Shown: positions 1 to 4,936 of the stretch, piece after piece
Numbering within the stretch: position 1 is the stretch's first letter
Layout of the letters: each line of letters starts with the position of its first letter
Source: a virus
Taxonomy: Duplodnaviria; Heunggongvirae; Uroviricota; Caudoviricetes
Direction: 5' to 3' (one strand)
Length of the DNA: 4,936 nucleotides
Virus record (IMG/VR): IMGVR_UViG_2657245521_000011
Span: 1-4,936 of that record
The notes under the pieces: generated by a model
Databases searched by the model: none
What the model was told of the DNA's origin: nothing
The model's input: only the letters and a program-made list of their open reading frames with translations
Translations under genes and position numbers: made by a program

Positions 1-43
1 AGCGCGGGACCATTCACAACACCAGAAGGACTCACTTTCAGGT

Positions 44-118
44 ATGGATCGTAGACGATTTATTAAAGGTTCAATGGCTATGGCCGCCGTGTGCATTACC
101 ACTGACTTGTATTCCTGA
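44..118 (+). pseudogene. opgD: 5' fragment of host opgD/mdoD (glucans biosynthesis protein D): Tat signal-peptide N-terminus only, reading frame broken after codon 17
   Basis: ATG at 44-46 translates to [17 protein letters not shown], a twin-arginine (RRxFIK) signal-peptide start that matches my recollection of E. coli OpgD/MdoD ([21 protein letters not shown]...). From nt 95 the translation becomes ITTDLYS then stop (TGA 116-118) instead of the expected continuation. Identification rests on recalled sequence, not on a search. Confidence 0.5.
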
Positions 119-310
119 AGAGTTATTACCAATCACTTGGCTTATAGAGGATGACTTCTTCTTGTCACTTATTAAGTTGGCTACAGCAGTTAGAAAAGCC
201 CCTAAGCTGACTAAGAAAGCCAGTAGAGAAGCCAGTCCATGATGCTGGTATGCCTGATACCCGAATCCGCATGTTGCAACGAACGAAATTAGACAGATTA
301 ACTTTCTCAC
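71..310 (-). CDS. doubtful hypothetical small protein (79 aa, two hydrophobic stretches); possibly spurious or a truncated remnant
   Basis: ORF from the six-frame track. The start is GTG at 308-310 directly after an in-frame stop, with no convincing Shine-Dalgarno and no internal ATG. The coding strand is T-rich, which can give hydrophobic-looking peptides by chance. The last 8 codons are antisense to the opgD fragment, so the ORF crosses the apparent junction at about nt 95. Confidence 0.2.
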   Translation of the reverse strand: MRKLICLISFVATCGFGYQAYQHHGLASLLAFLVSLGAFLTAVANLISDKKKSSSISQVIGNNSSGIQVSGNAHGGHSH

Positions 311-866
311 GCGTCATATCTCTCTATAGGTTAAATGGCACTAAAAGCAACGCAGGATGTGCTTTGCTCTGAGCACATCATTGATTCATCTTACTAATAT
401 CTATTAATTAAAAGATAAAACTAGGGGGTTTATGGTAAAACAGGACTGGACAGTGCTGCAACACCAGTCTCTCGCCGACTATGCCAAAACGGGTATATCA
501 CCAAAAGAGTGGTGCTAAGCAGGGAGACGGATTAACACATCTGCACGTTTAGGTGAAGAGTGGACTGACCTGATACAGGTATATGATCCTGTTCTAAGCA
601 TTAATTAGTATAATCGATATTCATTCTCATTTGATGGGGCCTGTTATGCGATCCAACCTGTTACGGGGCGGCGACCGTGTGGATTCTCTCTATTTATGAA
701 TATTGTCCACTATTTGCCATTTCCGTTTTTCTCTCCGAGTACAACATGATTTCTATCCAACAAACAGGGCAACGCCGATGCCAGCACGTGCTAAACGTCC
801 ATGCCGACAAGGGACGTGCGGCAATCATAGTCGCATTGCACGCGTATAAATAACAAGGAGGGGGGA

Positions 867-1100
867 ATGCGCCTCACTGTATTAGATGATGATCCCGGCA
901 GGAAGATTGATATCAGAGTAGAGCGGTACACTGTCTATCTTGATGGTGTTGATGTTAAGCGCGCGCTCACTGCTGATGATGAGAAAGGTGAAGTAATCGC
1001 TGTTGCATGTGATGAATATGGCCACGCGACCATAGAGAACGGCGAAGTGAAGAGGCAGATGCTTTACGGCTTAGTGAGGATTGAACGGTGTCCGCACTGA
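867..1100 (+). CDS. hypothetical protein (77 aa), first gene of the HNH/terminase gene string
   Basis: ATG at 867 is preceded by a strong Shine-Dalgarno AAGGAGG (855-861, 5-nt spacer). The stop TGA at 1098-1100 lies 18 nt before the HNH start on the same strand, an operon-like arrangement. The protein is mildly acidic and has no motif I can recognise. Confidence 0.6.
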   Translation: MRLTVLDDDPGRKIDIRVERYTVYLDGVDVKRALTADDEKGEVIAVACDEYGHATIENGEVKRQMLYGLVRIERCPH

Positions 1101-1118
1101 TTTACAGGTAATGGTGGT

Positions 1119-1472
1119 ATGAACAAAGAACCGCGCATCTATGACAGCAGATGGGGTAAAGCCCGCCAGGCATTCCTGCGCGAACATCCTTTATGCATTA
1201 TGTGTCAGGCACTGGGAAGGATTGAGCTGGCGACTGTGGTCGATCATATCACGCCACACAGGTTGAAAGATGCTCTCATAACAGGAAATCCCGCAGATAT
1301 CTCCCGGGCGCAAAAGCTGTTCTGGGACAGAGGAAACTGGCAAGGGTTATGTAAACCCCATCACGACTCAACCAAACAGCGTATGGAAAAGAGCGGGAGA
1401 ATGACTGGCTGTGATGCTGATGGGATCCCGCTTGACCCCGATTCACACTGGAACAGGGGGAGGGGCGGGTAA
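1119..1472 (+). CDS. phage-associated HNH endonuclease
   Basis: 117 aa with CxxC (CIMC), then DHITPH, then N in GNWQGLC, then CKPHH: the Cys/His/Asn arrangement of HNH zinc-finger nucleases. ATG at 1119 with AGGT about 9 nt upstream. It sits immediately upstream of terS, the position where HK97-like phages carry an HNH gene involved in cos cleavage/packaging. Confidence 0.85.
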   Translation: MNKEPRIYDSRWGKARQAFLREHPLCIMCQALGRIELATVVDHITPHRLKDALITGNPADISRAQKLFWDRGNWQGLCKPHHDSTKQRMEKSGRMTGCDADGIPLDPDSHWNRGRGG

Positions 1473-1686
1473 AAACTTAAATACCTTTGCAGTAAATGAC
1501 CCCCGCTTCTCCTTTCTGTGTACAACCGCGAAATGAAAAGTTTTTTTTTGGCTTGTTTTTTGGTTAAAAAACAACCTCGAATTACTTCAGTGTATTGATA
1601 TATAAGAAAATGATGAAAACAGCAAAGCTACTGTATTAAAATACATATGTGATTTAATGCAGTAGTTTTATTGGGAGGTGCCCGGC
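1473..1686. other. AT-rich intergenic region between HNH and terS; candidate cos / packaging-initiation region
   Basis: About 214 bp of non-coding, AT-rich DNA with long T/A runs (T9 at 1541-1549) and an A/T-rich inverted repeat TTGTTTTTT-ggtt-AAAAAACAA (1553-1574). In HK97-like genomes cos lies between the HNH gene and terS. The call is by synteny; the cleavage site itself cannot be identified from sequence. Confidence 0.35.
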
Positions 1687-2151
1687 ATGGCAGGGAGACG
1701 TCCGAAACCGTCCCATCTGAAAGCGGTAACCGGCAACCCAAGCAAGCGAAAACTCAATGACAAAGAGCCGTTGCCCTCACGCGAAATACCGTCGCCGCCC
1801 CCGCACCTGACCGACTGGGGAAAGGTTGCCTGGGGAAAACTGACCGTACTGCTGGATGGGATGGGAGTGATGACGGTAGCTGACGGACTGGCACTGGAGC
1901 GCCTCTGTGATATCTACGCCGATATCCTTCAGTTACGTGACACTGTCGCAGTGGAAGGCAGAACCTATACGGTACAGACAGATGGTGGATTTCTGATAAA
2001 ACCGCATCCTGCTGTCGCCATGCTGGCAGACGCTGACCGCCGTTTTAAAAGTTATCTGGTTGAATTCGGTCTGACCCCGGCCGCCAGAACGAAGGTAAAA
2101 GTTGATGGTGGAGAAAAAGACGAAGATCCGTTCAACCAGTTCTTCGGTTGA
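1687..2151 (+). CDS. phage terminase small subunit, P27 family
   Basis: N-terminus MAGRRPKPSHLKAVTGNPSKR is the characteristic start of P27-family TerS proteins. ATG at 1687 with GGAGG at 1674-1678 (8-nt spacer). The ORF-track start at 1678 is a GTG three codons upstream and is less likely. Stop TGA at 2149-2151. Confidence 0.85.
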   Translation: MAGRRPKPSHLKAVTGNPSKRKLNDKEPLPSREIPSPPPHLTDWGKVAWGKLTVLLDGMGVMTVADGLALERLCDIYADILQLRDTVAVEGRTYTVQTDGGFLIKPHPAVAMLADADRRFKSYLVEFGLTPAARTKVKVDGGEKDEDPFNQFFG

Positions 2152-3840
2152 TCCAGCCACGCAGTATGCAATGGATGTGGGTACCGGTAAGAAAATTGCC
2201 GGACCAGATATTCGTAATGCCTGTAAACGTCATTTGCGCGATCTTGAATTTGGGCATAAGCGCGGCTTGTCATGGGATACAGAAGCAGCACTACGCGCGA
2301 TTGATTTTTTTGCGAAGGTACTGAAGCTTAACGGTGGGGAGTTTGAAGGAGAACCCTTCATTCTGTTGCCCTGGCAGTGCTTTATTGTGGGATCCATTTT
2401 TGGATGGAAACGGCGGAACGGGGCGCGCCGCTTTCGTACCGCTTATGTGGAATCAGGCAAGGGATCAGGTAAATCCCCTCTGGCGGCAGGGGTTGGCCTG
2501 TACTGCATGACTGCGGATAAGGAGCCCAGGGCCGAGGTGTATGCTGCGGCGACGAAAAAAGACCAGGCTATGGTGTTGTTTCGTGATGCGGTGGCGATGG
2601 TGGATCAATCACCGGCGCTGGCACAACGTATCAGCAAATCAGGAGGGGCGGGCAAAGAGTGGAATCTGGCATTTTTGCAGACGGGATCATTTTTCCGCCC
2701 GATTAGTTCTGATGACGGGCAGTCAGGCCCACGACCACATTGTGCCTTGATTGATGAAATCCATGAGCACAAAAGCAACATTGTGGTTGAAATGATGCGG
2801 GCTGGTACAAAAGGCAGGCGTCAGGCGCTGATTTTCATGATAACTAACAGTGGTCATGACAAAACCAGCGTCTGCTATGACTATCACCGGTACGGACAAA
2901 AAGTCGCAGCCGGACAACTGGATAATGATGCATTTTTCTCTTTCATTTGTTCCCTTGATGAAAGAGATGATCCCTTCCAGGATGAATCCTGCTGGCCAAA
3001 AGCGAACCCTTCCATGGGGCATACATTTGAGGACAGTTATTTACGGGAACAGGTTGATGATGCCCGCGGTATTCCGTCCAAAGAGAGCATTGTACGACGC
3101 CTTAATTTCTGTCAGTGGGTTGATGCTGAAAATCCATGGATTAGCAGTGATGCCTGGATGGCATGCGAAAAAAAATTCGATCCTGAAGAGTTCCGGGGGC
3201 AGATTTGTTACGGAGGACTGGATCTTTCCGGCAAAAGAGATCTCACTTCTCTTTCTCTGTATTTCCCTGGAAGCAATGCGTTGCTTACTGAGTTCTGGAC
3301 GCCGCGCGATACACTTTTCGATCGCGCAAGGGTGGATCGTGTTCCTTATGACGTCTGGCTGAAGAAGGGGTATGTACACGCGCCGCCAGGTGCTGCAATT
3401 GATTATGGCTTTGTGGCAAAACGTCTGGCAACACTTGCTGCAATGTTCGACATCCGTAAGGTGGCGTTCGACAGTTACCACATTGATTACCTTTTGCCGG
3501 AACTGGATGATGAAGGTGTAAACATCCCACTGATTCCGCACGGCCAGGGATTCGGCAAGTCCGCCAAATCCGGACTGTGGATGCCGCATTCCATTGAGTT
3601 GTTTGAACAACTCATCATGGATAAAAAAATAAACATCGTACTCAACCCCTGCCTTCGCTGGTGTGCGGCCAATGCCGTTATAGAGGAGGACAAAAGCGGA
3701 AACCGTGTATTCAGCAAGCGTCGCAGCAATGGGCGTATTGATGGCGTGGTGTCCGGTGCCATGGCAATTGGTGTTGCAGGATCCTGTGAAGATGACGGCG
3801 ACGGCGATATCAGTGATTTCTTTAATGACCCCATATTTAT

Positions 3841-3844
<4 letters not shown>
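2105..3844 (+). CDS. phage terminase large subunit (ATPase plus nuclease)
   Basis: 579 aa. Walker A GKGSGKS (nt 2456-2476) and Walker B-like hhhhDE (CALIDEIHE, nt about 2741-2767), followed by a C-terminal region with conserved acidic residues (GGLDLSGKRD) as in terminase nuclease domains. N-terminal YAMDVG...CKRHLRDLE is typical of this family. Preferred start is ATG 2105 (AAGGT at 2092-2096), overlapping terS by 47 nt; alternatives are TTG 2102, GTG 2108 and ATG 2171. Stop TGA at 3842-3844. Confidence 0.9.

Positions 3845-4936
<1,092 letters not shown>

Follow-up and report, generated by a model that had tools for sequence, protein, structure and literature searches.

An HK97-type cos site and a clade-specific A/T-rich module predicted between the HNH endonuclease and small terminase genes of an Escherichia coli prophage

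Among the described packaging systems closest to the locus reported here, that of phage HK97 has defined cos ends, and the HK97 genome record begins at position +1. The overhang of HK97 is a 10-nt 3′ extension (PMC11331095, PMC9410871, PMC5557969), and the PhageTerm peaks for HK97 are located at 2047 (left) and 2036 (right), the 10 bases upstream of +1 being the overhang (PMC5557969). The HNH protein gp74 stimulates cleavage at HK97 cos. The HK97 small terminase (TerS, gp1) binds the region from +15 to +29, where an arginine reads one G:C pair and the adjoining A tract is required for deformability. For the cleavage itself, the HK97 authors leave two models open, in one of which gp74 cuts one strand and the large terminase (TerL) cuts the other. 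Two further phages provide reference points among relatives whose small terminases resemble that of the present locus. The genome ends of Pantoea phage AH07 were determined with PAUSE and PhageTerm (PMC8567787), and in the mitomycin-induced Serratia phage vB_SspS_OS31 (OS31) a coverage break at position 19,032 was read by the authors as the packaging site, while the coverage gradient was ascribed to aborted packaging in a defective phage (PMC7556043).

The window analysed here, which is the whole 4,936-nucleotide stretch at positions 1 to 4,936 of IMG/VR record IMGVR_UViG_2657245521_000011, carries the beginning of a cluster of phage head genes, with the gene order HNH, predicted cos, P27-family TerS, TerL, and portal, all on the + strand. 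A 77-aa ORF (867–1100, + strand) is followed by an HNH endonuclease gene of the gp74 type (1119–1472, + strand), the product of which shares 70% amino acid identity with HK97 gp74 (E 1e-55) and matches phrog_2323 (E 2.7e-48), its Pfam HNH score being below threshold only. The HNH gene is separated by 214 bp of non-coding DNA (1473–1686) from terS (1687–2151, + strand), a member of the P27/Terminase_4 family (PF05119, E 6.5e-23) that is preceded by the ribosome-binding site (RBS) GGGAGGTG at 1673–1680. The terL gene (2105–3844, + strand) encodes TerL_ATPase and TerL_nuclease domains and was assigned to the HK97 type on the basis of PF03354, PF20441, and a match to HK97 gp2 (27% full-length identity, E 2e-64). 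The portal gene (3850–4698, + strand) is truncated after about 282 codons, covering profile positions 1–224 of 321 in PF04860, and is interrupted by the end of an ISEc31-like element of the IS3 family (4687–4936, - strand), which carries rve_3 and rve_2 domains at 4702–4908 on the - strand and is 97–99.6% identical to ISEc31 copies in E. coli genomes.

The same prophage is present in L012 (GCA_910665095.1) with an intact portal of 441 aa and a full head and tail cluster, and many other assemblies with the prophage stop at the IS element. By exact-protein look-up, the identical TerS and HNH proteins were found in draft E. coli assemblies. The prophage was not found in 5,426 complete E. coli genomes, in which the IS element was the sole match, nor among the GTDB species representatives. 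Since its portal gene is truncated by the IS element, the copy in the window is unable to package itself, and the cos in this defective copy is an intact but idle site. The feature is of a well-studied kind and an ordinary, expected part of a defective prophage.

The intergenic region has a GC content of 34% over 1473–1686, compared with 50% for the whole window, and falls to 26% in 1548–1672. It contains a T9 run (1541–1549), a T6 run (1556–1561), and an A6 run (1566–1571), and an inverted repeat is formed by TTGTTTTTT (1553–1561) and AAAAAACAA (1566–1574), which are complementary at 9/9 positions and enclose the 4-nt loop GGTT. Folding of the repeat at 1553–1574 gave a z score of -1.9 as RNA (10 of 200 shuffles were as good) and -3.7 as DNA (0 of 200), no more than a modest excess over what chance gives in DNA this rich in A/T. 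The original prediction had described an HNH gene, A/T-rich non-coding DNA with long T and A tracts, P27 TerS, and TerL as the layout of an HK97-like cos region, and both the coordinates and gene identities of this layout and the tracts agree with the present analysis.

The last ~51 bases of HK97 are homologous to the left half of the predicted cos (1457–1510, + strand), which comprises a G-rich block (1457–1469), AAAAACTTA (1471–1479), ACCTTTGC (1483–1490), and AAATGACCCCC (1494–1504), and the last codons of the HNH gene overlap its G-rich left edge. The right end of HK97 aligned with window positions 1460–1510 without gaps and with 36 of 51 bases identical (71%), the HK97 segment ending in ACCTTTGCCCCAAATGACCGCCGCCAAA and the window segment in ACCTTTGCAGTAAATGACCCCCGCTTCT. 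When this query was placed on both strands of 3.6 kb around the HK97 junction, the best placement scored 36 and the next best 24, and the maximum reached by 200 shuffled queries was 28. The comparison with characterised HK97-like cos regions that had been proposed as a check shows a site that is homologous to HK97 cos on its left side.

To describe the constraint on this region, 89 loci with TerS proteins 81–92% identical to that of the window were sampled, and column conservation was calculated from 83 distinct sequences. An HNH gene lies upstream on the same strand in 88 of the 89 loci. On the left side, columns 1463–1465, 1468–1469, 1497–1501, and others are 98–100% conserved; the pentamer TGACC (1497–1501) reaches 99–100%, as do parts of the G-rich stretch 1463–1469 and the block AAAA.TT.A at 1472–1480. 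The positions equivalent to the HK97 overhang are mostly variable, with 1505–1510 conserved at 54–87%. The lineage of the window departs from the consensus at the near-invariant columns 1479, 1502, and 1521. The best-conserved left motif reads TGAC/CGCC in most relatives and TGAC/CCCC in the window, the slash marking the predicted bottom-strand nick that the motif straddles.

Three independent experimental landmarks in relatives converge on a single base. Position 1 of the HK97 record aligns with window position 1511, as does position 1 of the AH07 record, which begins CCTTTTTATGCACAACCGCGAAATGAAAAGTTTTTTT. In OS31, the base at which coverage breaks (19,032) is the first C of CCTTTCTGTG and likewise aligns with 1511. 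The TerS proteins of AH07 and OS31 are 88% and 82.5% identical to that of the window, respectively. Virion ends fixed at the equivalent of 1511 are thus a feature of relatives, namely of HK97, of AH07, and, as a coverage break, of OS31. Aligned to HK97, the window is predicted to carry the 10-nt 3′ cohesive end CCCCGCTTCT at 1501–1510 (+ strand), and the predicted nicks fall between 1510 and 1511 on the top strand and between 1500 and 1501 on the bottom strand. We infer the overhang length and the bottom-strand nick from the alignment to HK97, and the overhang length may vary among relatives, since the left side of cos in AH07 is shorter and diverged. Among Salmonella relatives with the intergenic layout of the window, the base equivalent to 1509 is the first of one Logan contig, and the base equivalent to 1521 is the last of a contig from another run. 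These contig ends lie 2 and 11–21 nt off the predicted cuts and hint that the DNA ends, or the coverage breaks, near this site.

The original prediction of a cos or packaging-initiation region at which an HNH protein assists terminase, as in HK97, gains support from homology, the ends or packaging starts of three relatives lying at the 1511 equivalent. It had also named a packaging site elsewhere, or headful ends, in related phages as evidence that would speak against it; what the relatives display favours a cos. Its placement of the genome ends within 1473–1686 holds for the predicted cut at 1500–1511, which falls in the first 40 bases of that interval, but the conserved cos begins earlier, at about 1457 inside the HNH gene.

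The right half of the predicted cos (1511–1549, + strand) consists of CCTTTCTGTG followed, at 1521–1549, by the predicted small-terminase site TACAACCGCGAAATGAAAAG and the T9 run. The core ACAACCGCGAAATGAAAAG was found in 88 of the 89 loci with up to three errors allowed, so selecting on the core motif hardly biases the sample. In the 83 distinct relatives, columns 1522–1547 are 98–100% conserved, with the exception of 1523 (87%). For comparison, third codon positions of the terS coding sequence in the same loci average 0.745 in conservation, and the longest near-invariant run there is 11. The right-side block is more constrained than the neighbouring terS coding DNA. AH07, OS31, and Klebsiella and Salmonella prophages, whose P27-family TerS proteins are 82–89% identical, share this right half in the form CCTTT.TGTG.ACAACCGCGAAATGAAAAGTTTTTTT, and window position 1511 is homologous to the first base of the AH07 genome and to the base at which packaging of OS31 starts.

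The invariant block lies at +11 to +39 from the predicted cut and ends in the T run, which is where the +15 to +29 binding site of HK97 TerS is located. By its position and constraint, the block at 1521–1549 is likely the binding site of the small terminase, and the T9 run, as part of this conserved block, is probably bound by TerS as well. The protein itself had no BLASTP similarity to HK97 gp1, and sequence searches of TerS and HNH against the PDB returned no significant match. An AlphaFold model of TerS, built from an alignment of 35 sequences, had a pLDDT of 69 (core >84), and its top PDB match in Foldseek was HK97 TerS (8pop, 6z6e), with a probability of 0.82–0.90, a TM score of 0.55–0.65, and a weak E value of 0.4–1. 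This match is consistent with a fold common to HK97 TerS, short of proof. Given the lack of gp1 sequence similarity and the weak fold match, the analogy between the two TerS sites draws on position and conservation.

Compared with HK97 and HK022, the locus is alike in the gene order HNH, cos, terS, terL, and portal, in the architecture of TerL, in its HNH protein (70% identical), in the 51 bases to the left of the cut (71% identical with the same endpoint), and in having a conserved block with an A/T tract 11–39 bp to the right of the cut, at the position bound by HK97 TerS. It differs in that its TerS belongs to the P27/Terminase_4 family and lacks sequence similarity to gp1, its TerL and portal are just 27% and 39% identical, and its right cos half is unrelated, with 13 of 40 bases matching HK97, as expected for random sequence. 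In addition, HK97 has a small ORF and about 320 bp between the HNH gene and the cut, whereas in the window the HNH gene runs into cos, and an extra 125-bp A/T-rich module precedes terS. Similarity to HK97 is thus close on the left (HNH and left cos) and distant on the right (TerS, TerL, and portal), and the boundary of this similarity coincides with the predicted cos cut site.

Taken together, it is highly probable that this E. coli prophage has its cos at 1457–1549, as part of a packaging module of the HK97 type in which an HNH protein assists. A small terminase ring would bind the invariant block at 1521–1549 (ACAACCGCGAAATGAAAAG and the T run), 11–39 bp downstream of the cut, and the large terminase together with the HNH protein encoded upstream would introduce staggered nicks, at 1510/1511 on the top strand and at about 1500/1501 on the bottom strand. 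The product would be a 10-nt 3′ cohesive end at 1501–1510, from which packaging would proceed rightward with terS entering first. We infer these steps from work on HK97 and from sequence conservation.

The stretch from the T run to the terS RBS is occupied in the window by a clade-specific A/T-rich module of about 125 bp (~1548–1672, + strand; 26% GC), with the copies of an imperfect direct repeat, AGTTTTTTT / AGTTTTATT, at its borders. The module is absent in 87 of the 89 sampled relatives (TerS 81–92% identical), including AH07, and in those 87 the terS ATG follows the T run and core by 19–21 bp (...TTTTTTTCCGGGAGGTTCCGATG). Most relatives of the AH07 and OS31 type differ from the window in having the terS start codon within 20 bp of the T run. 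OS31 and one other locus contain a different insert at the same spot, that of OS31 being its own insert of ~100 bp, in the way that the clade of the window has its own 125-bp module. Salmonella lineages (Denver, Ngili, diarizonae, and others) and further lineages of E. coli, with TerS 88–100% identical, have diverged versions of the module in the corresponding place. Common to all versions are a T-run/A-run inverted repeat, the motif AAAAAA(Y)AACCT, and a palindrome of 34–46 bp followed by TTTT before the RBS. Searches of IMG/VR, JGI metagenomes, phage records, plasmids, and complete E. coli genomes detected no copy of the module elsewhere, and Rfam gave no match at E ≤ 1. A mobile element or MITE, or borrowed DNA, was considered for 1548–1672 and rejected, the module being found at this position only.

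One alternative that was weighed makes the inverted repeat and the rest of 1548–1672 essential to cos, where they would bend the DNA, bind IHF, or give terminase a second site, in the manner of I1 and R2/R1 in lambda cosB. Located immediately downstream of the predicted TerS site, the module has tracts of A and T and is kept in several E. coli and Salmonella lineages; it also includes an IHF-like site with one mismatch on the - strand at 1588–1600 and, at 1571–1581, the sequence ACAACCTCGAA, which nearly repeats the core. However, it is missing from 87 of the 89 relatives, AH07 among them, in which packaging starts from the same base. IHF-like sites are not above chance, with eight found in the window against 4.7 expected. 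As a second TerS site, ACAACCTCGAA was rejected: its match to the core (10/11) is about what chance would give in 361 bases, and the copy is not conserved, the CG being lost in other lineages, which read ATAACCT(A/T/G)AAA there. An essential role of the module is accordingly unlikely. Because of their absence in 87 of 89 relatives, AH07 included, the module and its inverted repeat do not belong to the core cos, and the module would be dispensable for cos function in AH07-like relatives. The inverted repeat in the original prediction is indeed present at 1553–1574, as a perfect 9-bp repeat, but is no required element of cos.

The original prediction had missed a second structure in the module, a 46-bp palindrome (1624–1669) that is 83% complementary, ends in front of TTTTATT, and closely precedes the terS RBS. 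As a + strand RNA, the palindrome folds into a hairpin of -22.6 kcal/mol (z = -7.0). The hairpin and the TTTT are kept in nine sequences from about five lineages. Among these nine, double-sided changes (U-A to A-U) occurred twice at one pair, which is broken by U-U in three sequences, and several pairs showed G-U substitutions. In five sequences, the covariation score of the palindrome was not above shuffles (91/500), and the strand asymmetry in folding energy was mixed. A scan for the consensus of rho-independent terminators found none; the stem is long and stable but A/T-rich, with TTTTATT after it. Our best guess is a role of the module in terS expression, exerted by a hairpin before the RBS that is terminator-like or structure-forming. 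Alternatively, it may possibly be a protein-binding palindrome or a DNA-bending site.

Several more specific signals in the module were considered and rejected. A sigma-70-like promoter at 1613–1642 is weak and no better than in shuffled sequences, and its -10 element is not conserved, since in L110 the palindrome has its inner arms exchanged. A LexA box at 1631–1646 (CTGT-N8-ACAG) has one mismatch (ACAT), and its CTGT core is CTGA in L110 and L121. The mini-ORF at 1613–1642 (MMKTAKLLY and a stop codon), whose stop codon falls within the hairpin arm and whose reading frame is intact in three lineages, was set aside as the leader peptide of an attenuator, not being conserved in L123, L126, and L127. 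Pairing of ACCUC (1574–1578) with the terS Shine-Dalgarno sequence, as proposed by RNAalifold, is too marginal, consisting of a 5-bp helix with a 96-nt loop.

Headful packaging is the main alternative to a cos. The site would then be a pac site at which packaging starts, and the ends would be terminally redundant, not cohesive. The OS31 data bear on this most directly, with coverage that jumps at the homologous base and declines gradually downstream in a pac-like gradient. Given this gradient and the defective state of the phage, they mark a packaging start and are no proof of cos-type termination. However, the OS31 authors ascribed the gradient to aborted packaging of a defective phage, whereas in AH07 the ends were called by PhageTerm and PAUSE, and the unique linear sequence deposited starts at the homologous base. 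The left flank is, moreover, homologous to the cos of HK97, a proven 3′-cos, and an HNH gene adjoining the terminase genes is a hallmark of the HK97 cos mechanism. We consider a pac site very improbable. It can hardly be right that the intergenic region is regulatory only, controlling the head genes as promoter, operator, or terminator without any packaging role, because the one weak sigma-70-like match at 1613–1642 and the palindrome at 1624–1669, a possible operator or terminator-like hairpin before TTTT, are set against promoter-like counts no higher than in shuffled sequence, the unconserved -10 element with its swapped palindrome arms in L110, and the fact that the HK97-end homology, the three mapped ends, and the invariant 1522–1547 would be left unexplained. 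A regulatory role for 1548–1672 alone could be compatible with the cos explanation.

Apart from the HK97-type cos, the window contains a remnant of a lambda-type cos (600–745, + strand) about 840 bp upstream. Lambda cos is organised as cosQ-cosN-cosB and yields 12-nt 5′ ends. The remnant resembles it in the cosQ side, in a cosN GGGCGGCGACCG (666–677) that matches lambda cosN at 11 of 12 bases, and in an R3-like element CATTTCCGTTTTTCT; the cohesive-end sequence GGGCGGCGACCT of cosN and the flanking cosQ are both present. By blastn, the remnant matched HK225 and mEp237 in their cos regions, and it was aligned with the lambda and HK225 junctions in MAFFT. In the remnant, I1, R2, R1, and Nu1/A are missing, the homology ending at about 745 after the R3-like element, and the next gene is the unrelated 77-aa ORF. 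With I1, R2, R1, and Nu1/A absent, lambda-type packaging cannot start at 600–745. The remnant is limited to the lineage of the window (L012–L016). A 28-codon N-terminal fragment of another small-terminase family was also observed at 432–518. The remnant and this fragment are read as scars of successive replacements of the packaging module at the lysis-to-head junction.

The HK97-type cos of the window can be viewed as a natural swap, in which the HNH gene and left cos are as in HK97 and the terminase and right cos are different, and which bears on the question of which enzyme cuts which strand. A speculative reading, to which we attach little confidence, is that recognition and nicking of the bottom strand fall to the HNH protein rather than to the terminase, that the top strand is nicked by TerL once TerS has positioned it, and that each half of cos is inherited together with its own enzyme. 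The HK97 model in which gp74 and TerL cut one strand each would fit such a division, since the similarity switches at the cut and the left motif straddles the predicted bottom-strand nick. If true, the assignment of the strands to HNH and TerL would settle an open point of the HK97 mechanism. The analysis provides a base-level prediction of the ends (1500/1510) and a candidate recognition block for the terminase, both of which extend to a large clade whose members are enterobacterial prophages of Klebsiella, Salmonella, Serratia, Pantoea, and E. coli that encode a P27-family TerS, and ACAACCGCGAAATGAAAAG with its T run would be usable to find cos in P27-TerS prophages. The module with its conserved palindrome before terS may represent a new control element for terminase expression.

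In addition to the HK97-type site predicted between the HNH gene and terS, the window carries at 600-745 the remnant of a lambda-type cos, which comprises cosQ-side sequence, cosN GGGCGGCGACCG, CTATTTATGAA, and an R3-like CATTTCCGTTTTTCT. The cosN at 666-677 matches lambda at 11 of 12 bases, the similarity to both lambda and HK225 stops at about 745, and I1, R2, R1, and Nu1/A are absent from this remnant. The prophage therefore contains two cos sites of different types, approximately 840 bp apart. Only the E. coli lineage to which the window belongs (L012-L016) has the lambda-type remnant. A 28-codon ORF MVKQDWTVLQHQSLADYAKTGISPKEWC located at 432-518 matches the N-terminal part of small terminases from another family (phrog_51, phrog_370, and phrog_32222) and shows blastn similarity to positions 454-567 of Klebsiella phage RothC. 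This ORF probably represents the truncated remains of a previous packaging module.

Near the predicted HK97-type nicks (1500 and 1510), Logan contigs of two Salmonella relatives were found to terminate in separate sequencing runs. The first base of the L109 contig (SRR8492451) is equivalent to window position 1509 and the last base of the L120 contig (SRR15924143) to position 1521, both no more than approximately 20 nt from the predicted nicks. These contig ends may reflect linear phage DNA in the sequenced cultures.

Downstream, in the A/T-rich module, the 46-bp palindrome (1624-1669) has its inner arms exchanged between the window and the equivalents in two relatives with diverged modules, L110 and L121, reading AAAATACAT...ATGTGATTT in the window and AAATCACAT...ATGTATTTT in L110. 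It looks as if the palindrome centre has been flipped between lineages, and there is a compensatory T>A / A>T change in the outer arms. Serratia phage OS31 (L004, about 1590-1677) and one further locus, L023, have a different A/T-rich insert, approximately 100 bp long. L023 is labelled Pseudomonas lundensis and probably represents either a Serratia-like prophage or contamination. This other insert lies at exactly the same point as the window's insert, after the T run and before the terS RBS, and this point seems to be an insertion hotspot.

The portal gene (3850-4698) is broken after about 282 of 441 codons by an ISEc31-like element of the IS3 family (4687-4936, minus strand), which shares 97-99.6% identity with E. 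coli copies. The defective prophage copy is widespread, since contigs end at this point in many draft E. coli assemblies. One assembly, GCA_910665095.1, has an intact portal gene.

Upstream of the HNH gene, a 77-aa ORF (867-1100) contains the motif V.LDGVDVKR. The small ORF of HK97 (39414-39700), which lies between the HNH gene and cos, contains a similar motif, AIDGVEMKR. If the two ORFs are related, the gene order with HNH would be reversed between the phages.
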